A stretch of DNA of 46,350 bases from a bacterium (lineage in GTDB: Bacteria > Patescibacteriota > Minisyncoccia > Phycocordibacterales > Phycocordibacteraceae): assembly GCA_023267755.1 (NCBI GenBank), contig JAHFMR010000005.1, positions 1 through 46,350 of the forward strand. Direction: 5' to 3'. Below, in pieces: positions 4,897 through 46,350 of this stretch (position 1 is its first letter; every line of letters begins with the position of its first letter). The position numbers and the translations under genes are program-made. Below the pieces are notes generated by a model. The model was given only the letters and a program-made list of their open reading frames with translations. It had not been told where the DNA came from and made no database searches.

Positions 4897-4898
4897 TA

Positions 4899-9371: not shown

Positions 9372-9389
9372 GACAGCCGGCCGCATATT

Positions 9390-9398: not shown

Positions 9399-9405
9399 TC
9401 GAACA

Positions 9406-11577: not shown

Positions 11578-11580
11578 GCC

Positions 11581-11589
11581 TGTTACAAT
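11581..11589 (+). promoter_or_regulatory. extended -10-like box (TGtTACAAT) 6 nt before the GTG at 11596
   Basis: Matches the TGnTAnAnT pattern seen upstream of other units in this window. Confidence 0.4.
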
Positions 11590-11595
11590 AAAGGG

Positions 11596-28330: not shown

Positions 28331-28383
28331 ACGATTTAGATTATACCATTAATTATACCCATGCGATTTATGTACTGAGTATA

Positions 28384-30693
28384 TCAGGACGCGATTGGCA
28401 CCGTAAAGACAAAGGTGCTCCCCTTGCCTAATTCGCTCTTCTCTAACCCTATCGTACCGCCCATGCTCGAGATTATAAGCCGTGAGATATACAGACCCAA
28501 CCCGGTGCTTTGGGTGACATCTCGCGCAAGCATCTGTTCTCCTGCTTGTTGGAATTTCCTGAAAAGGAGCGCCTGATTGTGTTCTGAGATGCCCGCTCCC
28601 GTATCAGTGACTCTCACTTGAATGAAATTCTCTGCTGCTGTAAGCGCAACAGTGATACTCCCCTCCTTGGTAAATTTCGCTGCATTCCCGATCAAATTGA
28701 CAAGAATCTGCTCGACCTTGTCCTTATCAGCATTCACCGCAGGCAACGGCGCAGTCGGTGGCACATAGACGAGCGCCAACCCTTTCTTGCTAATCATCTC
28801 TCTCAGATCCCGATCTACCTTAGCGACTACTTCGGCTATGTCGAATTTTTCCTTTTTAATCTCCACTCGTCCTTGCTCAAGGCGCGACGCTTCGAGGAAA
28901 TCATTAACGATGGAGATGAGTCGCACACTGGAGGTGCCGATATCTGTAAGCATTTCTTTCATATCTTTATCGACTATCTTATCCGCGTACATATCAAGAA
29001 TCATATCGGCATTGCCGCGAATAGCCGTTAGCGGCGTACGGAGTTCGTGAGAGGCTACTGCGAAGAATTCGTCGCGACTCCGCTCCATAACCTTCGCCTC
29101 GGTGATGTCTTCGACCAGGATTACGTACCCGATAGCCACTTCTGCAGACTGAGCCGTGTCATCCTTCGTAAGGATGGGGGTGCAGAAGACGCGAAGATAT
29201 TTCTTCCCATGAGAGATTTCCTTCAATTCAACCATCCTCTTGATTTCCAAACATTCCCGGCAGGAATGCGCCAGCGCATCCAGATTTGAGGTCACTCCCT
29301 TGAAGGAATCGACGATATCTGCTATGGAAGCGGGTTCTTCGGCCAATTCGAGTATGTTCAGAAGCGCCTCGTTCCTAACGAGAACCTTGTCATCGGTATC
29401 CGCGATAATGAACCCGAACGGCAGACTATTGATAGAAGCAAGGAGGCGCGCTTTCTCATTACTAAGCTCACGTGTCCTGATAACGACTATCTCTTCAACT
29501 TTCTTCTTCTCTCCCTCGATGTCTTCGAGAAGGTTGAGAATAGCTTTCTTCGAGCTCTCTACCTCGATAATCTGCTCCGATAACTGTGCTGTTTTTTCTT
29601 GTATCCTCTGTTCAAGCCCTGACCGAGCGTTTCGAAGATTTTCCGCCATTTCGTTAAATGCCTGTCCGAGAGTTCCTATCTCATCTTTCGTGTCAATATC
29701 GATCTTGGTATCTAAATTACCTTGACTGATGACCAGAGCGGCATTGGTTAATCTCCGTATCGGCCTCGAAATTGATCTTGTAATCAGCAACCCGCTTATT
29801 GTTACGAAAATCAAGATACCGAATCCGATTGGCAATGAGTTATACGCTATCGCGTATGCAGGCTTCATAGCTTCGTCATAATCGATACTCGCAATCAAAC
29901 AGACGCTATTTCTTGGTATCCATCTATGCAAGCCGATAACACTCGACCCCGCATAGCTCGTATCATGGAACCCATCGTGCTTTTTTAGACAATCGGTGAT
30001 GCCAGCTGAATAGACGTATTTCTGAAATTCTGTTCCTTCATTCTTTCTAAGTGTCGTAACCGCAAGGTTATATTTGTTGACGAGATACGTCTCTCCAGAG
30101 TCACCGAGACCAGCTCTTTCCGTCATCAAGTCTGAAATTGATTTCAAATTAATCCTCCCCGCAAGAATTGCGAATTCTTTACCGGATGCGTCGACAAACG
30201 GGGTTGCGAGCGTGGAAGATGGTTTGAGCGTAATCGAATCATAATAGAAATTTTCGAGATATGAATCCCCCTCTTTACTCTTATTGAAATAGTCCTCGCC
30301 AGACACGATATTGCCAACATGTGTAGTGTCCGTAGAGAAAAGTATCTTTCCCTGCAGGTCAATGATGAAAAGTTCGGTAAAATTACTCCCCGTCAAATGC
30401 TCCTGTAATATGTGATCGATAGAAATGTCCGACGTACTTTTAGTAGTAGAAAAGAGCTCTTTTGCGCTTGCGATAGACCAATCTTCCCTGGCGAGCCTCT
30501 GCAACTGACCGACGATGGAAGTGATGAAGGTGTTAAGCTGATCCTCTTTGATGACCACAACGCTCTCGAGCTGGGCCTTGACACGGTTCACTATGGCCTC
30601 TTTGGCAAAATGGTAACTAATCGACATATCGATCGCTACCGCGAACATAGCAATCAAAACTGTTATCAGTACTAATTTATGCCCTATCTTCAT
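28384..30693 (-). CDS. sensor histidine kinase: TM-dCache-TM-HAMP-coiled coil-PAS-HisKA-HATPase_c
   Basis: 769 aa. HAMP RPIRRLTNAALVISQGNLD...EIGTLGQAFNEMAENL, H-box FFAVASHELRTPLTAIRG, N box LVNLIGNAAKFT, G boxes DTGAGI and GLGLYISR. Confidence 0.95.
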   Translation of the reverse strand: MKIGHKLVLITVLIAMFAVAIDMSISYHFAKEAIVNRVKAQLESVVVIKEDQLNTFITSIVGQLQRLAREDWSIASAKELFSTTKSTSDISIDHILQEHLTGSNFTELFIIDLQGKILFSTDTTHVGNIVSGEDYFNKSKEGDSYLENFYYDSITLKPSSTLATPFVDASGKEFAILAGRINLKSISDLMTERAGLGDSGETYLVNKYNLAVTTLRKNEGTEFQKYVYSAGITDCLKKHDGFHDTSYAGSSVIGLHRWIPRNSVCLIASIDYDEAMKPAYAIAYNSLPIGFGILIFVTISGLLITRSISRPIRRLTNAALVISQGNLDTKIDIDTKDEIGTLGQAFNEMAENLRNARSGLEQRIQEKTAQLSEQIIEVESSKKAILNLLEDIEGEKKKVEEIVVIRTRELSNEKARLLASINSLPFGFIIADTDDKVLVRNEALLNILELAEEPASIADIVDSFKGVTSNLDALAHSCRECLEIKRMVELKEISHGKKYLRVFCTPILTKDDTAQSAEVAIGYVILVEDITEAKVMERSRDEFFAVASHELRTPLTAIRGNADMILDMYADKIVDKDMKEMLTDIGTSSVRLISIVNDFLEASRLEQGRVEIKKEKFDIAEVVAKVDRDLREMISKKGLALVYVPPTAPLPAVNADKDKVEQILVNLIGNAAKFTKEGSITVALTAAENFIQVRVTDTGAGISEHNQALLFRKFQQAGEQMLARDVTQSTGLGLYISRLIISSMGGTIGLEKSELGKGSTFVFTVPIAS

Positions 30694-31709
30694 TTATAGA
30701 TGGCGTTCAGAAATTCCATCGTGTACGCGCTACTCACATCGCTCTTATTCGTGATAATCTTCTGCTCAGAGAGCGTGTCTTGCACTTGTTCCCATTTTGT
30801 CTGTTCCATCCAACCGATGGAGGTATCTCCGGTATTAATAAGTGGGATAGAAGAGTGGAGCATATAGCTCTCGTGACTCTTGGTGCTCTTTAGTGCGTAA
30901 GCAAGTACGATGTCGACGGTTTCAGATTCGTTCTCAATCGCATATTTCCACCCTTCGATGGTTGCCTCGACGAATTTCTGAACCGTCGCCGGATTCTTTT
31001 GTATCGTATCTTCTCGTACAAACAACACATCAGCGTACATATTTGCGCCATAATTCGCCATCAGGATGGTATTCACCTCTTGTCCCGCCTCGACGACCAG
31101 TTGGGGCTCATTGATAACATACCCCGTTGAGACATCGGTAGTCCCATTTAGCAATTCCGTCGCGTCATATCCGATTGTTACCTCATTTATTTTTTTCTTA
31201 TCGATACCAAGCTTGTTTAACATAGTGGCGTAGAGGATGCCCACGTTGACCTCCGATCCGTCTGCTGCTCGTTCAATGCCAACCGTCTTGCCGATGAAAT
31301 CTTGCGGCTTCGTTATGTTATTCTTTTTGAGCGAGTAAGCGACGACAGGATTTATCTTATAGATAACCGCGACAGCCTTAATTGGTGCTCCTTTTGATCG
31401 AGCGATGATGAGTTCGTCAGCACCGGTGATGCCGAAATCTGCTTTACCATCCACCACGGCACTGATAGTGGGTTGTTCGAATGAGAACGGCTTGATATCT
31501 ACCGCGAGCCCCACTTTTTCATAGAACCCTTTATCCTTGGCGACATAATTCCCGGCAAATTGTGCCTGATGCAACCACTTCAAATTCAGCGTAACCGGGG
31601 TGAGAACAATCGAATTCTTGTCACTTGAGGACAGCCCTCCCCGCATATAGATGCCGCCGAGTGCGATGATACCGAGTGCGACCCCGATTGCTATTCTTTT
31701 TACGTTCAT
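30690..31709 (-). CDS. NMT1/THI5/SsuA-type periplasmic solute-binding protein, membrane/signal anchored
   Basis: 339 aa. LKWLHQAQFAGNYVAKDKGFYEKVGLAVDIKP...ADFGITGADELIIARSKGAPIKAV. ATGA overlaps at both ends. No permease or ATPase gene in the window. Confidence 0.85.
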   Translation of the reverse strand: MNVKRIAIGVALGIIALGGIYMRGGLSSSDKNSIVLTPVTLNLKWLHQAQFAGNYVAKDKGFYEKVGLAVDIKPFSFEQPTISAVVDGKADFGITGADELIIARSKGAPIKAVAVIYKINPVVAYSLKKNNITKPQDFIGKTVGIERAADGSEVNVGILYATMLNKLGIDKKKINEVTIGYDATELLNGTTDVSTGYVINEPQLVVEAGQEVNTILMANYGANMYADVLFVREDTIQKNPATVQKFVEATIEGWKYAIENESETVDIVLAYALKSTKSHESYMLHSSIPLINTGDTSIGWMEQTKWEQVQDTLSEQKIITNKSDVSSAYTMEFLNAIYK

Positions 31710-32233
31710 GGCGTATAACGTTGGTTGGTAAGCCTCCGGTTCTCTTCTTTTAATTCGATCATCTTCAGCTCCCGATCGATCATGAGCTGATTGAGTTTTT
31801 TAAGTTCCTTAATATTCTCATCTTTCTGTATCTCCGCCTCTTTTTCAGAAGTCACGTCTTTTGAAATGAAGAGGATGTATTTGAAATTCCCGTTCTTATC
31901 CTTAGCCGGAGCCAGACTACTATGGCACCAGTGCCCGGTTGATGTCCCCGGAACATGTTCCATATCAAATTCGCTCGATTCCCCTTCAAGAGCCTTCTTC
32001 ATACTTTCTTTTACCAGATCGTGATATTTCTCCTCAATGCAATCCATATATTTCCAGTGTTTGATTTCTTCATCGCTCTTATCAAGCAAGAAGTGTTCTT
32101 CGCGCGCACCCTTGTTCACTGAAACTAAATTGCCCTGCGCATCAAATAGCTTGATGCACAGCGGCGCGGTGTCAAGAAGCGTCTTGTAGAGATATTCGCT
32201 TCCTTCTTCTGCTGGTTCTTGGTTTTGGTTCAT
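31706..32233 (-). CDS. cytoplasmic PAS-domain protein with C-terminal coiled coil
   Basis: 175 aa. YKTLLDTAPLCIKLFDAQGNLVSVN...FISKDVTSEKEAE, then a heptad-like KELKKLNQLMIDRELKMIELKEE. Confidence 0.75.
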   Translation of the reverse strand: MNQNQEPAEEGSEYLYKTLLDTAPLCIKLFDAQGNLVSVNKGAREEHFLLDKSDEEIKHWKYMDCIEEKYHDLVKESMKKALEGESSEFDMEHVPGTSTGHWCHSSLAPAKDKNGNFKYILFISKDVTSEKEAEIQKDENIKELKKLNQLMIDRELKMIELKEENRRLTNQRYTP

Positions 32234-33744: not shown

Positions 33745-34317
33745 TTATTGCAAGACTCGGTCAACCCTGTCCATAAGTTCTTTCTCGCTCAAGACTCCCG
33801 CGTGGACATCGCGGACAATCCCGGTGGAGTCGATGAAAAAGAAGGTTGGGAGGCTCTTTATCTGATACTGGCTTGTCGCGATGCCCTGCGTATCGAGCAC
33901 TACTTGTACCTGATACCCGCCCCGACTGACAAATGAGGAGACAAGACTCTTCTCTTCTTGGCTATTGATAGCGACAACGGGCGCCAGTTGTGCCTCTGGA
34001 GACTTGTGCGCAATATATTGATCGAGGATCTGTATCTGGTCAGCGGCTTGGCTATTCCACGTCGACCAGAATACGACGATAATAGGAGTCGTGCTGAATT
34101 GGGTTAATTTCACATGCGTGCCAGATATGTCGGGCAGGTCGAAATAGGGCGATTGCTGCCCTATCAAGGACGCGCTCGGCGGCGCTTCTGTAGTATCTAA
34201 GCGCGGAGCGCCTGTGATGCTCGGTAACACGCTTGAGCCGCCGAGATACACGAAGAGGAAGAGTGTGCCCACGATACCGAGCGCGATGAGTGGAGTCTGT
34301 ATTGTTTTAAACGTCAT
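33745..34317 (-). CDS. membrane-anchored TlpA/ResA-like thioredoxin-fold protein lacking the CxxC cysteines
   Basis: 190 aa. IIVVFWSTWNSQAADQ occupies the position where FWATWCPPC is expected. Distal LPTFFFID (cis-Pro region) is present. Confidence 0.75.
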   Translation of the reverse strand: MTFKTIQTPLIALGIVGTLFLFVYLGGSSVLPSITGAPRLDTTEAPPSASLIGQQSPYFDLPDISGTHVKLTQFSTTPIIVVFWSTWNSQAADQIQILDQYIAHKSPEAQLAPVVAINSQEEKSLVSSFVSRGGYQVQVVLDTQGIATSQYQIKSLPTFFFIDSTGIVRDVHAGVLSEKELMDRVDRVLQ

Positions 34318-37300
34318 AGGCCATAATGAAGATACGTAATAATCCCTTTCAGGAATCCCAAGAAGCCTTGCTGCCTCTCTGTGGTGAATGATACCCCGAC
34401 GAACGAGGGTCGTTCGAACGTACTGTCCTGTCCCACCGTCACATATCCTGGCGCATGCACGATGAGTCTGAACGTCCCCTGCGGGAGGGCGAGTTCGTAC
34501 GCACCGTTCTCGTCGACAGCGACATCCGCACTCGTCGATACCTGTGACGATACGAACGGCACATACGCATTCGTCTGTTCATTTAGCTTAAGTACCCGAA
34601 CAAGCGCACCAGGAATGGTATTCCCATGTGCCACAACACTCCCGCGCGGAATAGTCGCGAGCGTCCCAAAGCGTACGGCGGTCTCGGCATTGTGCGACGC
34701 ATCTTTTGCCGTAAGTAGCAGCGGCGTCGCACCGGCCGCTGGCGCTGTGAGCATCCCTTCCCAGAGACCGGAAGCAATATTCCGTGTGAGCTCCGTCATA
34801 CGCTCGCCAGCTGTGACCGAAGCGCTCACTGTATCTGCTTCGAGCGATATGCCGAATAGGAATGTGCTGTTCTCATACACAGTGAGCACACCTTCGGCGT
34901 CCGGAGTGATGTTGAGACCGTCTTTTACTGCCTCAAAGCTCCCAACATAGGGAGATGCCGTGTCGACCGTGATATCTGCGGACTGCGCCGGGGAGACATT
35001 ACCTGCAGCGTCTACTGCGCGCACGAAGAGACGATACGCACCGTCAGTAAGCTCGCTTGGATACGTGATGCTGTATGACGCACTCTTCTTGAGATATCCG
35101 TTCCTAAGAAGCGCAACCGACCAGTCGTCTTCCCGCGGGGACGCGTCGCGCGCAGTAAGGGCATATTCTACGGCGGCGATGCCTGAGAGCGCGTCGCTAG
35201 CGCCCCCAGTGGCCTTGAGCACGTCCGACTTCCCCAGCACCGTCTTCGCGAGCACTAGAGACGTGAGTGTCGGGGGCGTGCGATCGATAGCGAAACCGAC
35301 TGTCTCGGTAGACGTTGCGAGACCGTCTCCGACAATAAGCCGGAGTTCATAATCGACTGCTTCGCTTAGATGCATGACGTCCCAAACATACGACGTGTCC
35401 GTCTGCGCCACGGGAAGTGTGGTGAATGCCCCATTCCCGCGATGCCAACTAAGCGCGACTCCCGAGAGCGGCACCTTGTCGCGATTCACAATCTTCCACT
35501 GTATATCTGCAGTATCGCTAAACCCGTGAGACGATTGCGGCGTGATGAATGAAATAATCGGAGGATTATCATAGAGGAAAGAAGTAGTTGTCGGGCCGCT
35601 CGTATTCTCCGCCTGATCTGTCGCGGTGAGACGCACCGAGTTGCGTCCGCGGCTCGTCACGTTTACATCGCGAAACGCGAAGATCCCGTCGAACAGTGCC
35701 TTGGTTGTCTCGACGGTACTCCCGAACGTGAGCGTGACGACGCTCTCCGGCTCCGCCGTCCCCGAGACGATTGTTTGGACACCCTGCTTGTTTGGATTCG
35801 TGTCGGTGTCGTCGCCCACGCGCGCGTTTGGCGCGGGGGTGAGCACGAGCGGCGCGGCAGGAGGAGTGAGATCAATAATCACTGGGTGACTCACGCGCCC
35901 AACAAGCTTGCGATCATCGGTTACTCGCCAGAGCACCGGATATGTCCCTTCCTTCGTGAAAGTCGAGAACGTGGTCGCGAAACGCGCCCCCGTCGCGTCA
36001 GTAACGAGTGGCACTGCCGTCCACTTCTTACCATTATCAGTGCTGTATTCGACCCTTGCGATAGCGGCGTTAACGGAAAGGTCGCTTGGCACCAGCGCAT
36101 GCCCCGTCACCACAAGAGGTGTCTTGTTTGAGACAGTCTTCCTGCCGTCTTCAAATCGTAAGAACGGGAGCACATTATGGATACTCACCGACACCGGGTC
36201 GGTATACGCCTGTGCTACCCCATCATCAACACGCACACGCACGTAGTAGAGGCCGTTTTCGACCTCGGTCGAATCCCAATTAAAGCGATCCGCGGGGAGT
36301 GCGTCTCCTATAATCGTCCATGCGCTGTCGGTCGAGGAGGCAAAGAGGGATGAGAGCGGGAGGAGCGCATAGTCTCGAGCCGAGATAATCTGATAGGTAA
36401 ACGCGAGTGGATCGGCGTTGGCATCGGCATCGGCGGCAACAAGCGGCGCTGTACCGATCAGCGTCGCGTTCATCACCGGCCTTGAGAGCGCTATCGTCGG
36501 CGGGATATTGTATCGGATAGAAATCGGTACTGCCTCGCTTACGAGCCCTCCTTGATCGCGCGCCGTGATGCTCAAGACGTTGGCGCCACGCCCTTGCGCC
36601 TGTAAGCGTATCTTCGGCACAGTGAATACTCCGTCCTTACCCGGCTTAGCTTCATATGTATCGACGCCGTTCACCTCCACCATTGCTGTTGTGTCTGCTC
36701 GCACAGTTCCTATAATCGAGAGCGTGCTTGTCGCCACGACACTATTAGTGCGTGGCGAGGTGACAACCGGCTTCGGCGGCGGGTTCACCCCGACCGCGAG
36801 CGTCCCGCCGCTCACGACGAGACTCCCCTTATTCCCCGCTTTGTCTACGCCCGAGACGGCAATCCCCGCGACACCGTCATACCCAGGTACGGGAGTATAC
36901 ACGCCTTCGAAGTGGAGTCCGTTCCCTTTCATAATGACAGCACTCACAGCGGCACCTACTTGAGTGACGGTAACTACAGGAATACCCCCGAGCACTTCCG
37001 AGGCATCGACACTGATAGTAACCGGCGTGCCGCGCGTCGCGGGCGGATCGGCTTTCACGATAAAGGTCGGCGGGGTGAAATCGACCGAGAAGAGCCCCGA
37101 GACCATCTCGCCCATATGCCCATCGGTCCCGAGCGCGTCGACGATAACGCGATACAGAGATCCTGGCGTAAGAAGGTGGGTATCCCACGAATAGGATCCG
37201 CTTTTAGGAACATCGCTCGCGATAGAGATTGTATCGGCAGGACTGACGAATGAGCCGTCCCGAAGAGGAATCTTGTTCGAGTAGTAGAGATTAACCTTGA

Positions 37301-37814
37301 TTGCATTCAGTGTGACATAACTGATCGTCCCTTTCTGCGAGAACACATCGCCCTCTTGTGGCGAGCTGATCGTTACGATCGGATTCAGGATCGCGGTCGA
37401 GGCTTGTGTCTCCTCTCCCGCTCCGCCGCCATCTATCGGTATGGGCATCATTGTAAAAAGAGCTTCGCTCACTAAAGTACCTGTCGTTTTGCAATCGGCA
37501 TATACCAATGTGCTACAATCAAGATGATCGGCCGGATCAAACTCCAAAATCGAATAGTGACCAACGCCAAGACCAATATCGTTCATATCCTGATATTGGT
37601 AATACACCGGAACACCTTGCCGTACCGGCAACTCGTTGTCATCTAATCTGTAAATTGTATACCACTCTCCTCCACCCTCATTTGTGGCAGTAACAGGGTC
37701 GCCAACATAATATGACGATTTATCAAGCGTGATGGCGTGTGCGGTTGGAAAGAATGTGAACAGAATACTAAAAAAGGTGCCGGCTAGATAAGAAAGTAGG
37801 TGCCTTTTTTTCAT
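34314..37814 (-). CDS. large secreted protein with multiple bacterial Ig-like domains and a C-terminal CarboxypepD_reg-like domain
   Basis: 1166 aa. Signal peptide MKKRHLLSYLAGTFFSILFTFFPTAHA, many beta-rich repeats of about 90-100 aa, and a C-terminal GALVRVLKLNEQ...DENGAYELALPQGTFRLIVHAPGY. Confidence 0.8.
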   Translation of the reverse strand: MKKRHLLSYLAGTFFSILFTFFPTAHAITLDKSSYYVGDPVTATNEGGGEWYTIYRLDDNELPVRQGVPVYYQYQDMNDIGLGVGHYSILEFDPADHLDCSTLVYADCKTTGTLVSEALFTMMPIPIDGGGAGEETQASTAILNPIVTISSPQEGDVFSQKGTISYVTLNAIKVNLYYSNKIPLRDGSFVSPADTISIASDVPKSGSYSWDTHLLTPGSLYRVIVDALGTDGHMGEMVSGLFSVDFTPPTFIVKADPPATRGTPVTISVDASEVLGGIPVVTVTQVGAAVSAVIMKGNGLHFEGVYTPVPGYDGVAGIAVSGVDKAGNKGSLVVSGGTLAVGVNPPPKPVVTSPRTNSVVATSTLSIIGTVRADTTAMVEVNGVDTYEAKPGKDGVFTVPKIRLQAQGRGANVLSITARDQGGLVSEAVPISIRYNIPPTIALSRPVMNATLIGTAPLVAADADANADPLAFTYQIISARDYALLPLSSLFASSTDSAWTIIGDALPADRFNWDSTEVENGLYYVRVRVDDGVAQAYTDPVSVSIHNVLPFLRFEDGRKTVSNKTPLVVTGHALVPSDLSVNAAIARVEYSTDNGKKWTAVPLVTDATGARFATTFSTFTKEGTYPVLWRVTDDRKLVGRVSHPVIIDLTPPAAPLVLTPAPNARVGDDTDTNPNKQGVQTIVSGTAEPESVVTLTFGSTVETTKALFDGIFAFRDVNVTSRGRNSVRLTATDQAENTSGPTTTSFLYDNPPIISFITPQSSHGFSDTADIQWKIVNRDKVPLSGVALSWHRGNGAFTTLPVAQTDTSYVWDVMHLSEAVDYELRLIVGDGLATSTETVGFAIDRTPPTLTSLVLAKTVLGKSDVLKATGGASDALSGIAAVEYALTARDASPREDDWSVALLRNGYLKKSASYSITYPSELTDGAYRLFVRAVDAAGNVSPAQSADITVDTASPYVGSFEAVKDGLNITPDAEGVLTVYENSTFLFGISLEADTVSASVTAGERMTELTRNIASGLWEGMLTAPAAGATPLLLTAKDASHNAETAVRFGTLATIPRGSVVAHGNTIPGALVRVLKLNEQTNAYVPFVSSQVSTSADVAVDENGAYELALPQGTFRLIVHAPGYVTVGQDSTFERPSFVGVSFTTERQQGFLGFLKGIITYLHYGL

Positions 37815-37837: not shown

Positions 37838-38218
37838 CTACGGAGTACCTCCGAGATTAATCGGCGCGACTTCTATAATCTTATTGAGTGACGACCGGTA
37901 GAGGATAGCCTTCCGCGAGACTGAGTAGACCAAGACCTTGTCTCCTTTCTGAGCGTTGGCAAAGAAGGACTGGTCCTTCAGTTTATCCGGATCAGAGACC
38001 GTAGCGAGTGTTGGGGTTTCTTCGGCAGGCAGGACTATCAGCTTCCCCACTGCTGCTACTGTTCGGTCGAGATCTGCCCGTGCTTCTTTAGCAGGGTCTA
38101 TATGTGCTTGTGAATAGAAATAAATCATCCCCCCTACCGAGAGTGCAAGAAGCACGGCCAGCCCAACAATAATGTTCTTGGTGGTGAGAAACTGTTTTAT
38201 TTTTTCTAGAGGTGTCAT
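37838..38218 (-). CDS. small single-pass membrane protein (126 aa), unknown function
   Basis: N-terminal TM IIVGLAVLLALSVGGMIYFY followed by a soluble domain of about 85 aa. Tightly packed between neighbours. Confidence 0.6.
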   Translation of the reverse strand: MTPLEKIKQFLTTKNIIVGLAVLLALSVGGMIYFYSQAHIDPAKEARADLDRTVAAVGKLIVLPAEETPTLATVSDPDKLKDQSFFANAQKGDKVLVYSVSRKAILYRSSLNKIIEVAPINLGGTP

Positions 38219-38239: not shown

Positions 38240-39277
38240 TTAATTGCCTTCATTGCCAACCATCGCATTGTAGATATCGAGCGACGTATCCTGGAGCACC
38301 TCCTCCAAGTCTGTATAATCATCCCCTTCGGTCAAAATACAAAACGAGTACGGCTCCTTGCCGTCCTTCGCATAGACGATGCCGCACTCGTGCACCTGGC
38401 GGATTATCTGTGCAGGATTCTGCGGGTCTACTCCCGTCCGTTCCGCGAATTTATGTGCGACGACCACCGAGGACGGGAGCTTGGCGGTTGCGCCATTGGA
38501 GAAAGTGCTTTGGGAGAGCGTTTTAAGCGCACTGTTCGAGTATTCTTCAGTGAGATACGATGAGTTGTAGAGCATACGGAATACCCCGGCATAGGTCCGC
38601 GCGGTGATAAGGTTCTCGTTCTCATTAGTAGGTCGTGTAATCTGGATACCGAGCGCCTGCAGGATACGATCGATAAACTCACTCGGATAATAATTGAAGA
38701 GGAGCTGCGCTGCGGTATTATCTGAATAAACAATCGCGCGATGCATCAATTCTCTGATTGTATATTTCGTTCCGGCAACAAGTTGCTCCTTCGGCTTAAT
38801 GATCTGAGTATCATACAAATTCGGCGTTCCGTCGTACTGGATTTCTTGGTCAAGGATTCTCGGCTCCACTTCGGCGAGCTTGTACCCGCCGATGAGCACC
38901 GGGATCTTAAGAAAACTCGCCATATAGAACACGTCATTATCGTTCACTCCTGCGAAGCGGTTTGAGGTGAGATCGCGAACGAAGATGCCAATCCGCTTCG
39001 CCTTTCCTATATTCTTATATCCCTCGGTAAGCACTCGTAATCTATCTTGCAAGTCTGAGAGGGATGCGGCCTTCTGATCGGAGACATCGCAATTTATATT
39101 CGGCTTGATGAACTGCAAATTCGAAACGCAGGGCGTCGAAGCGGTAACGCCAGGAATGGTAAATTCTATAGCGTCATCAACAAGAGCGCCTATAAACATT
39201 CCGATGATGAAAATCGAACCAATGAAGATGTGCTTGCGCTTGAAAATTTCTCGCCAGCGAGATGCCATACGAGACAT
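38240..39277 (-). CDS. class A beta-lactamase-like serine hydrolase (paralog of 3814-4896)
   Basis: 345 aa. ASFLKIPV (SxxK) and VYSDNTAAQLL (SDN), with HKFA at the KTG position. Colinear similarity to 3814-4896 along most of the length. Confidence 0.8.
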   Translation of the reverse strand: MSRMASRWREIFKRKHIFIGSIFIIGMFIGALVDDAIEFTIPGVTASTPCVSNLQFIKPNINCDVSDQKAASLSDLQDRLRVLTEGYKNIGKAKRIGIFVRDLTSNRFAGVNDNDVFYMASFLKIPVLIGGYKLAEVEPRILDQEIQYDGTPNLYDTQIIKPKEQLVAGTKYTIRELMHRAIVYSDNTAAQLLFNYYPSEFIDRILQALGIQITRPTNENENLITARTYAGVFRMLYNSSYLTEEYSNSALKTLSQSTFSNGATAKLPSSVVVAHKFAERTGVDPQNPAQIIRQVHECGIVYAKDGKEPYSFCILTEGDDYTDLEEVLQDTSLDIYNAMVGNEGN

Positions 39278-39289: not shown

Positions 39290-42200
39290 CTAAGGAAGTG
39301 TTGTGATGTCGTTTGGAGGTACTGTCGGTTCAGGCGGCGGCTCGGTGGGTGGTTCAATTAGCGTAACGATCTGCTCTTCCGGCACTGTTGTTGGTGGAGA
39401 TGCTTGGTCGGTGGTTGAAGCGGTAGTGTCTACTGCAGGAGTCGTACTCGCGCTCTGTACCTCTTCGGGCGGAGTGGTGGTGCCAATCGGAAGCGTTGAG
39501 ACATCGGCCACAGGAACAGTCTCTGACACTACTGTCCGCGAGGTGAACTCCTTAGAATCTTTAATCGCGAGCGCTATCCAGTTGAAGGAGATATCTGCTG
39601 GTGCTTTCTTATTGAGGACGATCGTGAAGCCGTGGACACTCTTCTTGGTGACGATGAATTGTATATTCGCATCAAAGAGCTTCGAGATGTCGGCATCTGT
39701 GGTGGAGGCATCATTGAACGACATCGAGGAGGTAACGATAGGCTGCTCGATATAGTCACGACCGAAGGTGACGTCGACCGACTGTGCGCCTGCCTTAATC
39801 ACCGCGCTCCCGCCCGTGTCAGTGGTGAAGTACGGGCGGCCGAAGAAGGCGGTGTCGCTCATAATATTTATCGTTGTGCTCGCAGAGCCGAGATCAGTAA
39901 CCTGGAGTCCGCCGGTGAAGCTCGCGGCGCCCGAGACCGCGAGAGCTCCGGTAGAGACCTTCTGGGCAACGACTTCTCCAGCGAAGTAGGCATTGCCGGT
40001 GGTGTCGAAGCTGATGACGATATCGCTTGCGTCAGCAACTACCAGCGTAGTCGAAGCAATTGCATCAGTGGTACTCGCATCTTGATGAGTCGTGCTGGCG
40101 AATGCATCGAGTGCGGAAGCAAGCGCGGTCGAGGTTGCGAGCGAGAGTGTTTGAGTTGCTTTCACTCCGTGCACCACGAGCTTGTCGCCGACGATACTAA
40201 GGGCGAGCGAGCCAACCGTGCTTCCCGAGATGGTATCGGTAGTGAGCGCGCTCGTGTGCACCGCGTTCGCGATAAACTCTGGACTGATGACCGAGGAAAC
40301 GGCGCTTATCTTATCGGTAAAGATCTCTGACGGCGCAGAGACTCCCTTCCCACGCTCTTCTTTCAGTGCCGCGAGGAAGCCAAGTACTTCTTGGTCGTGG
40401 CTCTGGATGACTGCAGTAGCGCCACTGCCGACGAGTCCATTGCCGCTGTCAGTCGAGGTCGCCACATCGAGACCCACCTGCGCGCCGAGAGTAGTGAGCG
40501 CATTTGTGTGTGTGCTCTTCCAGTCGCTCATCGCGAGATCGACCGACTGGCCTGTGTAGTCGATCATATTCACGAACATCATAATCGTCGTACACTTCCG
40601 CTCCATCTGATACTCGCTCGCAGGACAATCGATTAGCTTAGCCGGATCAACCGACTCAAGCGCCTTGCCGAGGACTCTCCCCGAGAGCGTCGCCTTCATC
40701 GCATAGCCAGGGACGCTCGCGGCGGTCAGATAATCGCCCGTGCGGATCATCCCATTCTCAGTAGAGACCAAGACCGGGACGCGGCCGATAAGCGCGATGG
40801 GGTATGAATTCTCGGTATAGGCGCCCGCGACGAAGCCCGGATCGGTGGAGACAACGCCGAGCATATCTGGCTGGTATTGATACTTAGAGGGCATCACGCC
40901 GTGATTATTCTGCGGGTCGATAGATACCACCATTCCCTTCTGCAGCTCCACCTGCGAAGTGTAACGCTCTGCCAAGTCGGCGCCGCTCGTGTTAATGGTA
41001 CCGCCAGTCTGTGCGAAGATGTCCCCCCCGGACGTAACTCTGAACACTGAGAGACCATCGGCCTGGAGATTAATAAGATCCTTGTCCTTAGTCACCTTAT
41101 ATTCATAGAGCACCGGGGTCGCTACCGGTCTCTGCGGGAAAGCCATTGCTGAACCGCCGTTATTGTTCCAGGTGTCGGTGTAGATGCCGCTGTAGGATGG
41201 GAAGGTTCTGCGGAAATTGAAGTTAATCTGCAGCCACGTATCGGTTGCCGCAGGATTTATTAATCCACCGGAGTTCGACACTTCTCGTGTTGTAGAAGTA
41301 GCGAGTGCAGCCTGCGTCGGAGCAGTCTTCACTTCTGCGGAGATGCCTCCTAGAGCGGTGCTGAACATATTGCTTCTCCACATAAGAGTCGAGTTGGAAT
41401 CAAGCTTGGTGCCCACCGACGAGAGGTCAAACTGCTCCGACTTATAGATGCCGCTCGGCACCCAACCAGCGTCGTAGGTCATCACCGCATTTGAGGTGGT
41501 CGTCGTCGCTGCGCCCATAATAACAACGAACTTGCCATCAGAGCGCTGGAAGGTGACCGAGCCGCTATTAGTACCGTTGCCGACGCTTGGTCCGGCGGTA
41601 TTAAGACCGATGTTTCCCAATACCCCTGTTGAACCGGTATTCCCCGCTTGTTCATTATAAATATTGGTAACGGGCTGTGGAGCAAACAGAGCTCCGCCAC
41701 CACCAGCGGTGAGAAGCCATGTGCCATCGGGTCGTGGAATTGCCCCTGCACCAAGTCCTACTCCTACAGCGGTAACAAGGGGCGCACCGGCAGGCATGGT
41801 GAGTGCATTGGTAAACGGATTATAAATTTGTGTGGCAAGCAGACCAACACATGTAAGCGTTGTCGCACTCCCTCTCACAATGACCCACTGGCCGTCCTTC
41901 CTCTGAAAAGCGAAAGCTCCGGGGCCATTACCAGTGATGGCCGGAGCGCCCGTAGCGGTAAATACCATCGTATAAGGATTGAAGAGGTTGGTGACAGTAC
42001 TAAGCGTGCCGCACATGGTACCTTGATTGACTGCTGACATTCCAGGAATGAAGAGGTAGGTGCCGTCGGGTCGCGGTATGGACATTGAACCTGGACCAAC
42101 CACCTGCGTAGGAGTGGGTCCCATCGTCATTGTATTATTCACAGGATCGTAGATTGAGGTCTGAGCCGTACCACCACCATGCACAATGAGTACACGCCCG

Positions 42201-45200
42201 TTCGGCAATGGTATGGCGGACGCCCCTATACCGGCACCGGTCGTACCAGACACGCTCGCGAGCGACGGGCCAGCAACGAAAGTGTCCCCGACTGGATCAT
42301 AGATATTGGTGGTGCTGGTGGCTGACGCTCCTGCGCCCATTACAACCAGGAAAGTGCCGTTCGGACGTTTGAACGCGAAACCTCCTATACCGAGCGCGAC
42401 CGTCGGCACCTGCGGCGCAGCCGTACGAAGTGTGGTGGTAGAAGTGTTCTCGTCATAGATTTGGGAATTCAGTGTCGGATTACCGGAAATAATCACGAAT
42501 TGTCCGTTTGGACGCTTCATCACCACGGTCGTAGAGGCAGTAGCGACTTGCAACGGCGAGGAACTCGCGAACGCTCCGTTATAAAAGGTAGCGTTTGTTG
42601 TATTTATCGTAGAGCCCCATCCCACGCCTGCAGAAAGCGCGAGCGCGTTTGCGTTATTCTTATCGTTAGAAATATTCACCATCACCGGCCCCGACGCGGT
42701 CGCCGTGCTTGAAGAGACCGTGTTGCCGAAATCAAATTGGCTCCGGTGAAGCACTGCGCCGTTGTCCACAGTGATGTCATAGAGCACCGGATCGGCGTTC
42801 ACGCGGCGGTATCGCGTCATACTTCCTTTTCTGATCCCCCACTCTTGGTCGAGGAAACGCGGGAGCTCACGCTGGAAGGTAAATTTGAATTGAATACGGT
42901 TATCAGCGGTGGTTGTAGCGTTAATCAAATCACCGCTATTTGCGATATTGCGATAGGTACCAGAAGAACATGCCGCCGGACTCGTAACTGTCCTCACTTG
43001 AGCTTGTATCGTCCCTTCAGTATTTTGCGTCCAATTAAGTGTCGAGTTCGGGGAGAGATTTGTGTTGTCGATACACTCGCTTTCATAATAGGCATCCTGC
43101 GTGTTGGCACGATTAGTACCCGTGACAAAGTTCATATCGTATATATCAAGACCTGTGCCGCCGCCTCGGGCAATGGCATATCGCCCATCGGGAGTCATAA
43201 AGGCAACCATACCGGCTCCGGCTGCTCCCGAAAGAGCCAGTGACCCTCCTGGATTAGTAAACACGGGGTTTTGTGCTCCTACTGTCGCACCGGGCATACC
43301 GGCTCCGGCATCAATTACATTCACTACGGTCGTGTTTGCCGTAATGAGCGTGTATTTGCCATCTTGTCGCCAGACCGCTTGAGCTCCGTCGGCGAGTGCC
43401 GACGAAGGACCTAGGCCAGCACCTGATAGAGCACTACTGAAAGCTCCAGCACCGTTCGGCGTTGTCGTGCCGACTGGGTTATATACGAAAGAGGTAGTAA
43501 TCGCACCGGGTATGGTGAGGAACATGCCGTCGGCACGCCGTATAGAGAATGCCCCTGCCGCAATAGTTGCTGGTGCTGTGGGACCAGTTGTTAAGGTGTT
43601 GTTATAGGGGTTATAGATTTGTGTCGCCGTACCATTGCCGATGTAAATGAGGAATGTTCCGTCGTCTCTCTGAACAGCATGGGAGCCCACTCCGATTGAG
43701 CTTATGGTGGGACCGGCGGTGAATGTGTTCGCGGTCGGGTCATAGATGAAGGTCACGGTATTGCCCGCCCACCAAACAAGATATTTGCCGTCTGGACGGA
43801 GCAATGCGTTCGTACCGCTCGTTGATGGGCAGTTCGTGGGAAGTCCCGCTGTCGGTGCCGCCACTGCGGGAGCTATGCCATAGGGATCAATAATAGTATT
43901 CACGTTGCAGTTTGGGTTTCCTGCACTTGTTATCACCAGATATTTACCGTCAGGACGCTTCAGAGAAAGAGCGCCAGATTGCGGGGTCTGTCCCAAAGTA
44001 GAATTCGGAAGTGTCGTCACAGTGTTTGAATATCCATTCCACACTGAAACGGTGGTGCCGCCGCCGTTTATAATGACGTACTTGCCGTCACTCCGCATAA
44101 TGACGTGCCCCCCAGCACCCATTGTTGCGAAGGTGGCGGTCGAGCTTGCTGCGATAGAACCGTCTCCCGGGATTACCCCGTCTTGAATCGTGATGTAGCC
44201 GTTTGTCGTGGTGGTAGTCGCGAGCGTTGACGCGCCGCCGATACCTCCCTGGAAGTCTGCTGTGGTAGTTTTAACCGTGTCAGAGGTCGCTGCGTTTATC
44301 GTGAGTCCGCCGCTGTTCGCGACCGTGAACTTATCAACGCCTGCTTGTTGGAGTGCAAGGAGTCCACCCGCACCGCGCTGATCGATGATCGCCGCCGCGA
44401 TGACGGCCGAGGTGCTCGAAGCCGAGAGTGTAGCCAGTGGGCTTGAGGTGCCGACACCGAGGCGCTTGTTCGTGGCATCCCAGAAGAAGTTTGCATTGTC
44501 GCCGCTAAACGCAGCGCCGTTCGCAAATTGAACTGCTCCGGTATTCCCTTGAGCGCTCGCGGTGCCGGAGTTGATGCAGGTGCCGTTGATCGCGTAGCAG
44601 ACCGCTGCACCGCTCGAGATATTGAGACCGCCACCAGTGCTGTAGAAGGTCGTCGTAGCCGCCGCGAAGTTCGCGATACTGTTCACCGAGAATATGGTTC
44701 CTGGCGAGGTGGTACCGATACCTACATTACCCGTCGAGGTGATGGTCATGCGAGTAGTATCATTCGTTTCAAGAGAAATATCGTGAAGCGATTGTGTCCC
44801 AATGTCTAAAGTTGTTACACCTGTCGTGTGCATACCAAAATGACCGGTGACTGTATTATTTGATACTGTCAAGACGGAAGCACCCGTTGTTGAATTAACT
44901 GCAAGGAGCGACATCGGGCTCGTTGTACCGACACCAATGGAACCATTCGTCGTGAAGTTGCCCGTACTTGTCGTGGTGGCATTGCCATTGACGACAAAAC
45001 CGTTCTTAAAGTACCAAGCGAGATTGTCGGTAACAGTAGATGAGGCGGTGTAGTAGTTGGTGCCGCCGAAGGAGGTGTAGACGAGATTGGGGACACCGGC
45101 GCCACCTGTTCCGTTAATGGTAACTGGCGATGTTCCGAGTACGTTGAAACCTGAGCAGGAAACCGTCCCGGAACAAGTCACCGATGTTGTGGCCACCCCT

Positions 45201-46350
45201 GCCACGCCGGCGGCGCCGGTTGAGTAGAGGAGGTTGGAGGAGGAAGGCTGGGTGGTGGTGGCGAGGCCGGTGTACGCGATAGTGGAGTTCCCGCTACCAC
45301 CCACGAGTGCGCCAAGTGCCGACCCGACGAAAGGTCCAGTGAAGGTGAGAGTGGTAGTACCAACACTGGTGAGATTGTTCGTGCCGTTGCCGTAGAGAAG
45401 CTGAGAGGAGGTGAATGTGGCAACGCCAGTACCGCCACGTGCGACACCGAGCGTGCCGGAAGTGAATCCAGAGATATCGGTGGAGGTTGCGATGAAGGCG
45501 AGGCCGTTTGTCGTGTTGCTCCAGCCAAGTACTCGCCCGCCAGTGATGCCTGCGCCGAACATCGTGGAAGTGGCGATGAATGAAGGGGCGGTTGAGCCAG
45601 GGGCGGCGTTGGCGAGAACACCGTTCGCTGCCGTGCCCCACGACGTGGCATTGCCCGAACTGGTAACGACGCCAGTGAGGTTTGCGTTGGTAGTGACAGT
45701 CGCCGCGTTCCCACCGATGGAGAGCGAGGAGGTGGCGGTGGTGACGAGGGCGCCAGCATTGTTGGTATAGAGGATCTGGTTGGCGGAGAAGGAGGTGACG
45801 CCGGTGCCGCCTCTGGCGATGCTGAGGGTGCCGGTGGTGAACTGGGAGATGTCAGTGGAGGTGGCGATAAAGGCGAGGCCGTTTGTGGCGTTGCTCCAGC
45901 CGAGGACCTGGCCGCCGGTACCGGTGCCATACAGGGTGCTCGTGGCGAGCGGTGCAGCAGTGTTGCCGTTCGCCACTGAACCGAGAACGCCAGCGTTCAT
46001 AGTGCCCCACGACGTGGCGTTGCCAGAGCTGGTAACCACGCCAGTGAGATTGGCGTTGGTAGTGACGGTCGCCGCGTTTCCCCCGATGGAGAGCGAGGAG
46101 GTGGCCACTTGAGCGAAGGCGGTGCCGGCTGCATCAGTATAGAGGAGACGATTGCCGGTGAGGGAGGAGAGACCGGTACCGCCGTTTGCAATCGCCGCGA
46201 CACCAGTGATGTTCGCTGCCGTGCCCCCGATGTTGAGCGTGCTGGTGGAGAGTGCGGTGACGTTGCCGGCGGCTCCTGTGGAGTTGCCGAGGATGGTGTT
46301 GGCCGCTATCTGTGGAAGCTGAGAAAGGGAGAGTGCGTTGGTGGCAATGC
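39290..46350 (-). CDS. giant tail-fibre-like surface protein, 5'-truncated by the window edge (>2,350 aa)
   Basis: I translated 46109-46348 by hand. The frame stays open to the window end, so the track start at 46108 (a GTG) is internal. Contains 123-aa GGTG repeats, VGIGTTSP motifs, two 7-blade propeller-like arrays and a Pro/Thr-rich tail. Confidence 0.9.
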   Translation of the reverse strand, partial: IATNALSLSQLPQIAANTILGNSTGAAGNVTALSTSTLNIGGTAANITGVAAIANGGTGLSSLTGNRLLYTDAAGTAFAQVATSSLSIGGNAATVTTNANLTGVVTSSGNATSWGTMNAGVLGSVANGNTAAPLATSTLYGTGTGGQVLGWSNATNGLAFIATSTDISQFTTGTLSIARGGTGVTSFSANQILYTNNAGALVTTATSSLSIGGNAATVTTNANLTGVVTSSGNATSWGTAANGVLANAAPGSTAPSFIATSTMFGAGITGGRVLGWSNTTNGLAFIATSTDISGFTSGTLGVARGGTGVATFTSSQLLYGNGTNNLTSVGTTTLTFTGPFVGSALGALVGGSGNSTIAYTGLATTTQPSSSNLLYSTGAAGVAGVATTSVTCSGTVSCSGFNVLGTSPVTINGTGGAGVPNLVYTSFGGTNYYTASSTVTDNLAWYFKNGFVVNGNATTTSTGNFTTNGSIGVGTTSPMSLLAVNSTTGASVLTVSNNTVTGHFGMHTTGVTTLDIGTQSLHDISLETNDTTRMTITSTGNVGIGTTSPGTIFSVNSIANFAAATTTFYSTGGGLNISSGAAVCYAINGTCINSGTASAQGNTGAVQFANGAAFSGDNANFFWDATNKRLGVGTSSPLATLSASSTSAVIAAAIIDQRGAGGLLALQQAGVDKFTVANSGGLTINAATSDTVKTTTADFQGGIGGASTLATTTTTNGYITIQDGVIPGDGSIAASSTATFATMGAGGHVIMRSDGKYVIINGGGTTVSVWNGYSNTVTTLPNSTLGQTPQSGALSLKRPDGKYLVITSAGNPNCNVNTIIDPYGIAPAVAAPTAGLPTNCPSTSGTNALLRPDGKYLVWWAGNTVTFIYDPTANTFTAGPTISSIGVGSHAVQRDDGTFLIYIGNGTATQIYNPYNNTLTTGPTAPATIAAGAFSIRRADGMFLTIPGAITTSFVYNPVGTTTPNGAGAFSSALSGAGLGPSSALADGAQAVWRQDGKYTLITANTTVVNVIDAGAGMPGATVGAQNPVFTNPGGSLALSGAAGAGMVAFMTPDGRYAIARGGGTGLDIYDMNFVTGTNRANTQDAYYESECIDNTNLSPNSTLNWTQNTEGTIQAQVRTVTSPAACSSGTYRNIANSGDLINATTTADNRIQFKFTFQRELPRFLDQEWGIRKGSMTRYRRVNADPVLYDITVDNGAVLHRSQFDFGNTVSSSTATASGPVMVNISNDKNNANALALSAGVGWGSTINTTNATFYNGAFASSSPLQVATASTTVVMKRPNGQFVIISGNPTLNSQIYDENTSTTTLRTAAPQVPTVALGIGGFAFKRPNGTFLVVMGAGASATSTTNIYDPVGDTFVAGPSLASVSGTTGAGIGASAIPLPNGRVLIVHGGGTAQTSIYDPVNNTMTMGPTPTQVVGPGSMSIPRPDGTYLFIPGMSAVNQGTMCGTLSTVTNLFNPYTMVFTATGAPAITGNGPGAFAFQRKDGQWVIVRGSATTLTCVGLLATQIYNPFTNALTMPAGAPLVTAVGVGLGAGAIPRPDGTWLLTAGGGGALFAPQPVTNIYNEQAGNTGSTGVLGNIGLNTAGPSVGNGTNSGSVTFQRSDGKFVVIMGAATTTTSNAVMTYDAGWVPSGIYKSEQFDLSSVGTKLDSNSTLMWRSNMFSTALGGISAEVKTAPTQAALATSTTREVSNSGGLINPAATDTWLQINFNFRRTFPSYSGIYTDTWNNNGGSAMAFPQRPVATPVLYEYKVTKDKDLINLQADGLSVFRVTSGGDIFAQTGGTINTSGADLAERYTSQVELQKGMVVSIDPQNNHGVMPSKYQYQPDMLGVVSTDPGFVAGAYTENSYPIALIGRVPVLVSTENGMIRTGDYLTAASVPGYAMKATLSGRVLGKALESVDPAKLIDCPASEYQMERKCTTIMMFVNMIDYTGQSVDLAMSDWKSTHTNALTTLGAQVGLDVATSTDSGNGLVGSGATAVIQSHDQEVLGFLAALKEERGKGVSAPSEIFTDKISAVSSVISPEFIANAVHTSALTTDTISGSTVGSLALSIVGDKLVVHGVKATQTLSLATSTALASALDAFASTTHQDASTTDAIASTTLVVADASDIVISFDTTGNAYFAGEVVAQKVSTGALAVSGAASFTGGLQVTDLGSASTTINIMSDTAFFGRPYFTTDTGGSAVIKAGAQSVDVTFGRDYIEQPIVTSSMSFNDASTTDADISKLFDANIQFIVTKKSVHGFTIVLNKKAPADISFNWIALAIKDSKEFTSRTVVSETVPVADVSTLPIGTTTPPEEVQSASTTPAVDTTASTTDQASPPTTVPEEQIVTLIEPPTEPPPEPTVPPNDITTLP
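45371..46350. repeat. 369-bp (123-codon) tandem repeats at the 5' end of the giant gene
   Basis: Units at about 45371-45739 and 45740-46108, plus a more divergent unit running to the window edge. The same landmark (gtgccccacgacgtggc) occurs at 45633 and 46002, giving a period of 369. Confidence 0.85.

Follow-up and report, generated by a model that had tools for sequence, protein, structure and literature searches.

The mosaic adhesive trimer (MAT) proteins of Bdellovibrio bacteriovorus, a bacterial predator, are trimeric adhesins displayed on the cell surface. They have a signal peptide, a conserved beta-rich N-domain of ~130 aa, stalks of the beta-helix/prism type and C-terminal tips of diverse kinds; a self-cleaving S74 chaperone is present in 13 of the 21 (PMC10769870). 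In phage phi29, the C-terminal domain (D4) of gp12 is an auto-chaperone that is cleaved off once it has folded (PMC3357383). The D4 domain of Dpo31 is trimeric, structurally equivalent to phi29 D4 and traced from Asp664; the proteins as expressed lack it, and it is seen as an auto-chaperone (PMC13317679). Here, we describe a giant open reading frame (ORF) at 39290..46348 on the minus strand of a 46,350-nucleotide stretch of a Patescibacteria contig (JAHFMR010000005.1; this whole stretch is the window below) with likenesses to both systems. We favor, with somewhat better than even confidence, the explanation that the giant is a secreted, probably homotrimeric surface fibre adhesin on the plan of phage tail fibres and MAT proteins, that it carries a G2-like self-cleaving cassette and that it serves in host attachment. 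This explanation is based on domain homologies, predicted folds, an internal duplication, the chromosomal context, a conserved cassette and conserved neighbours. From these data we infer by analogy that the protein forms trimers, that it cleaves itself and at which site, that it is displayed on the surface with its C-terminal end distal, and that it adheres to a host.

The translation of 39290-46348 comprises 2352 codons with no stop inside, ends in a TAA stop codon (39290-39292) and is still open at the window edge. Because the frame runs past this edge, the N-terminus of the giant is missing and the protein has at least 2352 aa. A search of 5.8 billion proteins gave 66 relatives. The best of them, with 61, 52, 47, 44, 36 and 32% identity across 61-74% of the query, are hypothetical proteins from metagenome-assembled genomes (MAGs) of Minisyncoccia/Parcubacteria, and a genome scan revealed seven orthologous giant loci (L001-L007) in Patescibacteria MAGs. 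Since homologues cover most of its length, the giant ORF is a real gene. A preliminary description of this DNA had listed the modules of one giant protein, and translation and motif positions place all of them where they had been claimed. Its reading of the protein is supported on the whole. In the family searches that it had proposed for the segments, the giant's own sequence passed no Pfam threshold (the whole protein and eight segments gave nothing significant), and members of its domain families matched the G2 and Kelch families. Four segments had no match in NCBIfam, and the PHROGs gave only matches of unknown function or weak matches to tail fibres. As a separate observation, the giant of locus L005 is represented by two overlapping ORFs (1008-5054 and 5051-11908; 1348 and 2285 aa), perhaps because this assembly contains a frameshift or sequencing error, or perhaps because the gene is truly split; no such break interrupts the giant ORF of the window.

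The relation to MAT proteins was detected in a fibre region of the beta-helix/prism type at aa 440-700 (44249..45031, minus strand like all features of the giant). This region contains three copies of the motif [SNR]-[IVL]-G-[VI]-G-T-[TS]-S-P, the number described before, starting at aa 470, 541 and 629 (nt 44941, 44728 and 44464). A profile of 14 sequences spanning aa 440-700 (A5) had five matches in the PDB, all of them Bdellovibrio MAT fibre proteins (among them Bd2133, 8ond_A, E=7.8e-18; 8ojn_C, 4e-7; 8ol4_A, 1.7e-3; and 8oml_A, 3.4e-3), and in these alignments the GNVGIGTTxP motifs are in register. Profiles were needed for this result, as the single giant sequence matched only 8ojn_C at E=0.09. 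The region also gave weak matches to PHROG tail-fibre families (E~1e-3). Judged from its sequence, the G[VI]GT[TS]SP region thus shares homology with the trimeric fibre adhesins that make up the MAT group of Bdellovibrio.

Toward the N-terminus lies a Gly/Thr/Ala-rich stalk with GGTG repeats (45428..46348), which consists of a partial unit (aa 1-57) and two units of 125 aa. GGTG is found at aa 56, 180 and 305, giving a period of 124-125 aa; the repeats are, therefore, as described before while the claimed period of 123 aa is not. Protein identity between the two complete units (aa 58-182 and 183-307) is 71% (E=1e-59), their DNA is well diverged, and Tandem Repeats Finder (TRF) reported no DNA tandem repeat here. 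Because the copies are diverged in DNA and TRF reports nothing, there is no hint of the assembly collapse that the preliminary description had considered. GGTG repeats are common to 20 of the 66 homologues, all of which are other giants, and have no match in Pfam, PHROG or other curated families. In other words, of the two motifs that had been called characteristic of fibre-type proteins, VGIGTTSP is supported by A5 and the weak PHROG matches, whereas GGTG matches no profile. In P0002, L006p and L005a, orthologues whose N-termini are complete, the sequence begins with a hydrophobic segment resembling a signal peptide, and a conserved 'IL(N/S)(Y/F)QGRL' domain comes next.

The Gly/Thr/Ser-rich composition would also suit a giant adhesin that is monomeric or a wall protein associated with the S-layer, in which the fibre likeness would reflect Gly/Thr-rich beta-structure only and the Pro/Thr-rich C-terminal tail (aa 2291-2352; 39293..39478; 24% P, 24% T) would be the anchor. 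Pro/Thr tails resemble the wall-spanning regions of Gram-positive surface proteins. However, the Bd2133 match with its in-register repeats indicates homology rather than shared composition, and the tail has no sortase or other recognizable anchor signal. Moreover, H-type lectins such as Helix pomatia agglutinin (HPA), the fold predicted ahead of the tail (see below), are trimeric modules, and so is the G2-type D4 domain (PMC13317679). We, therefore, consider a monomeric wall protein very unlikely.

Between the fibre region and the C-terminal part, the giant has two large supermodules, each with a propeller and a beta-sandwich. The first comprises a Kelch-type seven-blade beta-propeller (aa 745-1086; 43091..44116) and domain D (aa 1087-1210; 42719..43090), which starts with YYESECID at aa 1087 (nt 43090). 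After a linker of low confidence in the AlphaFold2 (AF2) model (aa 1211-1269; 42542-42718), the second comprises another Kelch-type seven-blade propeller (aa 1270-1633; 41450..42541) and domain F (aa 1634-1755; 41084..41449), which starts with IYKSEQFD at aa 1634 (nt 41449). The R/K-x-D/N-G-x-F/Y blade motifs are at aa 752, 798, 851, 894, 938, 994 and 1052 in propeller 1 and at aa 1279, 1328, 1381, 1426, 1483, 1539 and 1602 in propeller 2, so that the two sets of seven units and the domains following them are located as stated before. Domains D and F are beta-sandwiches of ~120 aa that align with each other and are modelled as all-beta (pLDDT 62-81 and 70-89, respectively). The homology proposed for the supermodules was borne out by an alignment with 31% identity over 514 aa (E=7e-43); at the level of sequence, the two supermodules and their propellers are paralogues, and the duplication is present in all orthologues. 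By eye only, a short similar motif was seen on both sides of the propeller pair ('LLALQQAGVDKFTVANSGGLTINAAT' at aa ~668-700, nt ~44249-44346, and 'LINLQADGLSVFRVTSGGDIFAQTGGTINT' at aa 1756-1790, nt 40979-41083), and it looks as if the two supermodules had been inserted into the stalk-to-chaperone junction.

That the Kelch-like blades form beta-propellers, as had been proposed, agrees with an AF2 model of the head (aa 735-1275), built from 14 aligned supermodules, which has a pTM of 0.64, propeller pLDDT values of 70-92 and three to four beta-strands per repeat unit. A Foldseek search of the PDB with this model gave 814 matches at E<=1e-3 and, at the top, galactose oxidase, Kelch and NHL domains (E~1e-9). 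In Pfam, the giant's own segments gave only sub-threshold matches to PD40 and DUF1668, while the homologue P0006 matches Kelch_6 with 34.8 bits at a cut-off of 25.3 and P0223 has precomputed Kelch_1/Kelch_2 matches. Distant relatives of the supermodule (29-39% identity) are proteins of 650-820 aa from MAGs of Eisenbacteria and Chloroflexota and from metagenome contigs, some of which have Kelch_1, Kelch_2 or TIG matches in Pfam.

The Foldseek alignment with galactose oxidase extends over ~530 columns and includes the propeller as well as the next sandwich, as would be expected if the propellers were radical copper oxidases of the galactose/glyoxal oxidase type and the giant a surface enzyme rather than an adhesin. 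However, sequence identity is only 11-14% at an rmsd of ~14-15 Å, and there is no glyoxal oxidase match in Pfam. The invariant columns among the 14 supermodules are G, P, D, R, S, W and one Tyr of the 'IYDP' blade motif, nearly all being Gly, Pro or Asp; they include no His or Cys, and the copper ligands (two His and two Tyr) and the Cys-Tyr cross-link of galactose/glyoxal oxidases do not have conserved counterparts. We rejected the enzyme reading, which we hold to be exceedingly improbable, on this lack of conserved catalytic residues. Because no His or Cys is conserved, the propellers are most likely binding modules for a glycan or protein ligand on a host cell.

Block 5 (aa 1771-1935; 40544..41038) is the part of the giant with the widest distribution, being present in 39 of the 66 relatives and twice in some of them. 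As described before, its motifs DLAERY, GVVSTDPGF and GRVPVLVS are found in this order, at aa 1791 (nt 40978), 1831 and 1855. An alignment of 38 copies of block 5 (A1) has as invariant positions D21, A23 and E24, corresponding to D1791, A1793 and E1794, together with five glycines. Against the PDB, A1 matched phi29 gp12 (6qz9_A, E=1.1e-3), phi29 D4 (3gqh_A, 2.5e-3) and Dpo31 D4 (28nb_A, 4e-3). The alignment sets D1791-L-A-E1794 on phi29 D692-F-A-E695, and chain 3gqh_A begins at precisely that Asp; it also sets 'GVVS' on phi29 'GVIS' and 'GRVPV' on 'GQIAV'. PF11962 (Peptidase_G2) is matched by 13 of the 38 members of A1 (best E=6.4e-7), and P0053 matches it at the homologous position with 25.5 bits at a cut-off of 25. 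In an AF2 model of the C-terminal part (aa 1634-2300), block 5 is all-beta with pLDDT values of 84-94. Its best Foldseek matches in BFVD include 175-aa entries named 'Preneck appendage protein' (E=6e-11, TMt 0.62), along with many proteins of uncultured phages, some of which are named tail-fibre-like, major tropism determinant N-terminal domain or intramolecular chaperone (IMC). A tblastn search of 50,697 phage genomes found the domain, with 'YADLAERYE', at the C-terminal end of two phage proteins: gp359 of PA5oct, a virion structural protein whose gene adjoins that for a long-tail-fibre distal subunit, and protein 292 of Sinorhizobium phage Phosso, the gene neighbours of which encode giant virion structural proteins.

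Based on these data, we conclude that block 5 is most probably a divergent intramolecular-chaperone domain of the Peptidase_G2 type found in phi29 gp12 D4. The preliminary description had pointed to auto-processing chaperone domains here and named two kinds to test; Peptidase_G2 agrees with the profile matches to phi29 and Dpo31 D4, with PF11962 and with BFVD, while the other, Peptidase_S74 (PF13884), was rejected as it had no match at E<=10 in any segment of the giant, which also has no SDxxxK motif. Because the D-x-A-E motif aligns directly after the phi29 site between S691 and D692, the scissile bond of the giant is predicted to lie between A1790 and D1791 (nt 40979-40981 and 40976-40978, respectively), and E1794 (nt 40967-40969) is a putative catalytic residue. 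For phi29, we take D692 and E695 to have catalytic roles on the basis of the class 'glutamic peptidase G2' in MEROPS and of the PDB chain boundaries. A literature search on Peptidase_G2 and PF11962 returned no paper.

Downstream of block 5, the AF2 model has two predicted helices (aa 1936-1957 and 1984-2000) and then a Ser/Thr/Ala-rich linker of low confidence (together 39893..40543), and a conserved SE[IV]FTD[KR] motif follows just after the helices (alignment A2). The next domain, at aa 2153-2273 (39530..39892), is an H-type-lectin-like beta-sandwich, of which ~100 residues (aa ~2173-2263) are confidently folded (pLDDT 85-93). Its Foldseek matches are SLL-2 (3wmp), HPA (2ccv) and discoidins, with a probability of 1.0 and E~0.01, as well as distal beta-sandwiches of tailspikes and R-pyocin fibres. 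PF09458 (H_lectin) is matched by 13 of 18 family members (best E=1.1e-4), and the giant's own sequence reaches E=0.017 and 15.7 bits at a cut-off of 24; a profile of the domain had no significant match among PDB sequences, so that the H-type-lectin assignment is based on Pfam matches of family members and on Foldseek only. The Pro/Thr-rich tail is variable among orthologues, and P0004 has an SH3b domain (PF08239) in its place. Thus, the ~430-aa Ser/Thr/Ala-rich end with its Pro/Thr tail has the composition reported earlier and is more than low-complexity sequence, as it includes helices and a folded lectin-like domain.

The G2-like domain, the helices and the lectin-like domain form a cassette that is conserved at the C-terminus of many Patescibacteria giants, whose middles differ (LamG, NosD/beta-helix, LVIVD or Big), while more distant giants that share the stalk repeats have Peptidase_S74 at their end (P0018, P0023, P0031 and others). 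Such an exchangeable C-terminal cassette is what an intramolecular chaperone would be expected to show. Among 1.84 billion, the A1 profile matched 30,410 cluster representatives with E<=1e-3, of which 25,326 reached E<=1e-10, and the top 150 representatives range in length from 485 to 6814 aa. Of 343 domain copies from 213 proteins, 320 have DxAE. The G2-like domain is, thus, a very large and essentially unannotated family. Pfam has no dedicated family for it, and its matches fall variously to PF11962, to families of phage cement proteins and, spuriously, to 5_nucleotid_C.

Several observations weigh against a self-cleaving, G2-type cassette. The giant's own sequence passes none of the Pfam thresholds for G2, Kelch and H_lectin, and its block 5 has no PF11962 match at all. 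The PDB profile E-values of only ~1e-3 are marginal, and none of the 50 best Foldseek matches of block 5 in the PDB is a solved D4 chain. The P1 residue is Ala in block 5 as opposed to Ser in phi29. The second half of the domain also resembles phage capsid cement/decoration proteins, which are not proteases: block-5 members match the cement/decoration families PF09956, PF22758 and PF23982, and there is a structure match to TW1 (5wk1_K). Moreover, ~415 residues, including the conserved lectin-like domain, lie downstream of block 5, which is odd for a chaperone that is to be discarded. Finally, all 147 further top-scoring representatives of the A1 search (P0067-P0213) have two to three tandem copies of the domain, the last of which ends at a median of 240 aa before the C-terminus; a simple model in which the cassette is cleaved once and discarded does not explain tandem copies.

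The conserved downstream part, the tandem copies and the cement likeness suit a fibre adhesin of the same kind in which the G2-like domain does not cleave and instead acts as a permanent trimerization or 'knot' domain, comparable to the P22 tailspike's auto-chaperone or to cement proteins of the beta-tulip type. The lectin-like domain would then be the distal receptor-binding tip or a cell-wall-binding anchor. SH3b, in which one orthologue ends, is a fold often used for wall binding, and the C-terminal auto-chaperone domain of P22 stays uncleaved (PMC3357383). By contrast, the invariant Asp and Glu of D-x-A-E in register with the phi29 site are hard to explain structurally, and PA5oct gp359 and Phosso 292 end with the domain, as they would if it were an IMC. 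The non-cleaving reading is the chief rival because of the long conserved downstream part, the tandem copies, the cement likeness, the marginal G2 E-values and the missing D4 matches in Foldseek; we consider it possible and, on the whole, doubtful.

In the self-cleaving model that we favor, the stalk would be anchored at its N-terminal end, where the orthologues have a signal peptide and the conserved N-domain. The long Gly/Thr-rich stalk, with GGTG repeats and then a MAT-type beta-helix with GxGTTSP loops, would carry a distal head of two paralogous propeller and sandwich modules that would bind a ligand on the host cell. By analogy to phi29 gp12 and Dpo31 D4, the cassette would fold and trimerize first and so bring the three chains into register; afterwards it would release itself by a cut between Ala1790 and Asp1791, for which the invariant residues Asp1791 and Glu1794 would serve. 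We also consider a variant, which in our estimate is rather unlikely, in which the cassette is self-cleaving and non-covalently retained as a 'cap'. In this variant, the 562-aa fragment resulting from autocleavage between A1790 and D1791 would stay on the fibre tip and be shed or deposited on host contact, exposing the propeller heads, and would work together with the beta-lactamase-fold and 126-aa membrane proteins encoded next to the giant (see below). If true, this would represent a widespread and undescribed maturation system for Patescibacteria surface fibres, given a G2-like domain in >30,000 clusters, and tandem domain copies would permit stepwise processing.

The remainder of the window encodes six tRNAs, a class I aminoacyl-tRNA synthetase, TsaD, LepA, MurJ, ribonucleotide reductase, a two-component system and cell-wall enzymes, in a genome of the Minisyncoccia/Parcubacteria type. 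Because this is ordinary chromosome, the giant is a cellular gene and not a prophage gene, and the chromosomal location given in the preliminary description is supported by the housekeeping genes that flank it. The phage-like modules would have been compatible with a tail fibre of a prophage or tailocin. However, the 39 kb sampled on one side consist of housekeeping and signalling genes and the six tRNAs; the orthologues in seven MAGs have similar chromosomal surroundings, in which the small membrane protein is again encoded beside them; and proteins of 2300-3900 aa with signal peptides are not virion-like. The prophage reading, to which we give next to no credence, was, therefore, rejected on gene context. 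As for the orthologous loci, L002, L004 and L007 come from MAGs titled 'uncultured Candidatus Saccharibacteria', whereas the nearest relatives bear the names Minisyncoccia, Parcubacteria or Tayloriibacteriota; the taxonomy assigned to these MAGs may not be reliable.

Two genes that follow the giant are conserved with it. The first (38240..39277, minus strand) starts 12 nt past the giant's stop in the same orientation and encodes a membrane-anchored serine hydrolase of the class-A beta-lactamase fold (PF13354, Beta-lactamase2, E=2.6e-35). Its SxxK and SDN motifs are intact, it scores far below all NCBIfam beta-lactamase cut-offs, and its role is probably in wall remodelling and not in resistance. 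This family is directly 3' of cassette-bearing giants in L001, L010, L011 and L012. The second gene (37838..38218, minus strand) encodes a 126-aa single-pass membrane protein with a transmembrane helix visible in the sequence and with no family match in Pfam or NCBIfam. It has a homologue (55-68% identity) directly downstream of the giant in all seven orthologous loci, and in L012 a homologue with 43% identity lies behind a different giant of the LamG type. The beta-lactamase-fold gene, in L012 together with that for the small protein, also follows distant cassette giants of Moranbacteria (P0010 and P0007). Both proteins are probably functional partners of the giant, and the 126-aa protein is a candidate anchor or partner of the fibre.

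Some further features of the loci were noted. A second paralogue of the beta-lactamase-fold protein is encoded at 3814-4896 (plus strand) and adjoins a DD-carboxypeptidase/YkuD gene. Within the giant's gene string, 34314-37814 (minus strand) encodes a second large surface-type protein of 1166 aa with Big_13, Big_6, Big_12 and glucodextranase-B-like domains, which is kept in L001 (46% identity). Upstream of related giants are runs of small to medium-sized genes without Pfam matches, including five consecutive genes for proteins of ~168-200 aa each in L006 (750-4941) and a conserved four-gene set in L010 and L012 (84-3891); in the giant's own locus, the corresponding stretch falls outside the window. 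Positions 28000-32000 of the window, with histidine kinase, NMT1 and PAS genes, have a GC content of 0.45-0.48 as against 0.53-0.60 elsewhere and may be a laterally acquired segment.

Patescibacteria (candidate phyla radiation, CPR) are bacteria of ultrasmall size, and the cultivated ones live attached to host cells. For cultivated Saccharibacteria, genetics has demonstrated that adhesins are required for the host-attached lifestyle (PMC10633639). The attachment molecules of Patescibacteria are mostly unannotated 'hypothetical' giants, and the locus described here offers a readable blueprint of one of them, with a MAT/tail-fibre stalk, a candidate host-recognition propeller head and what would be a phage-derived self-processing assembly cassette. 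By analogy, the giant is probably an attachment device for a host cell. Recognition of the cassette domain as G2-like would improve the annotation of microbial dark matter, as this domain is barely seen by Pfam and yet occurs in >30,000 clusters, mostly of large proteins. Reuse of phage receptor-binding hardware by bacteria that prey on or parasitize other bacteria is established for Bdellovibrio and is extended here.

The MAT proteins (Bd2133 8OND, 8OJN) and the giant have several design principles in common. Both are chromosomally encoded fibres similar to phage tail fibres, with surface display predicted for the giant, Bdellovibrio too living on other bacteria, and both have homologous GNVGIGTTxP stalk repeats, variable distal binding domains and, as predicted for the giant, a C-terminal intramolecular chaperone; the signal peptide and conserved N-domain of the giant's orthologues are alike in arrangement. 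By contrast, the giant is from another phylum, the monoderm-like Patescibacteria, and is two to four times longer. Its head is a duplicated Kelch propeller and sandwich, of which the accessible part of the MAT report makes no mention, and its putative chaperone is G2-like and not S74, with helices and a lectin-like domain after it.

Block 5 shares with the D4 domains of phi29 gp12 (PDB 3GQH, 3SUC) and Dpo31 the D-x-A-E motif where the released domain begins, two strands (GV[VI]S and G-[RQ]-V-x-V) and a position C-terminal to a fibre or spike. However, block 5 is without the ~50-aa insertion of the phage D4 domains, has Ala rather than Ser at P1, is not at the end of the protein, is often in tandem and is sub-threshold in Pfam in the giant itself. 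Furthermore, phi29 D4 has 163 aa in total, whereas ~415 residues lie beyond block 5 in the giant. PA5oct gp359 and Phosso 292 are the closest phage sequences, with 34-37% identity and the pattern 'YADLAERYE...GV[IV]ST...GRVPV', and differ in that the domain is at the extreme C-terminus of proteins of 478-626 aa.

For the layout as a whole, the endosialidase of coliphage K1F provides a parallel. It is a trimeric spike with a beta-propeller and a lectin-like beta-domain in each chain and a C-terminal IMC that is cleaved off. The giant resembles it in combining propeller, lectin-like domain and putative C-terminal IMC. By contrast, K1F has a six-blade sialidase propeller with catalytic residues and an S74-type IMC, and no sequence similarity was found between the two proteins. 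Galactose/glyoxal oxidases (domains 2 and 3), the best Foldseek match in the PDB, have a seven-blade Kelch propeller followed by a beta-sandwich as in the giant, which is without the conserved copper/radical site residues, so that the likeness is one of architecture only. The H-type lectins (HPA, SLL-2 and discoidins) share the predicted fold of aa 2153-2273, with sub-threshold PF09458 matches in 13 of 18 members, whereas the giant's domain is below the Pfam cut-off and is placed after the putative cleavage site. Overall, two known kinds of design, a MAT/tail-fibre-like adhesin and a probable phage G2-type intramolecular chaperone, are combined in the giant; what is unusual here is that they occur in Patescibacteria, that the Kelch head is duplicated, that the cassette is extended and that partner genes are conserved.

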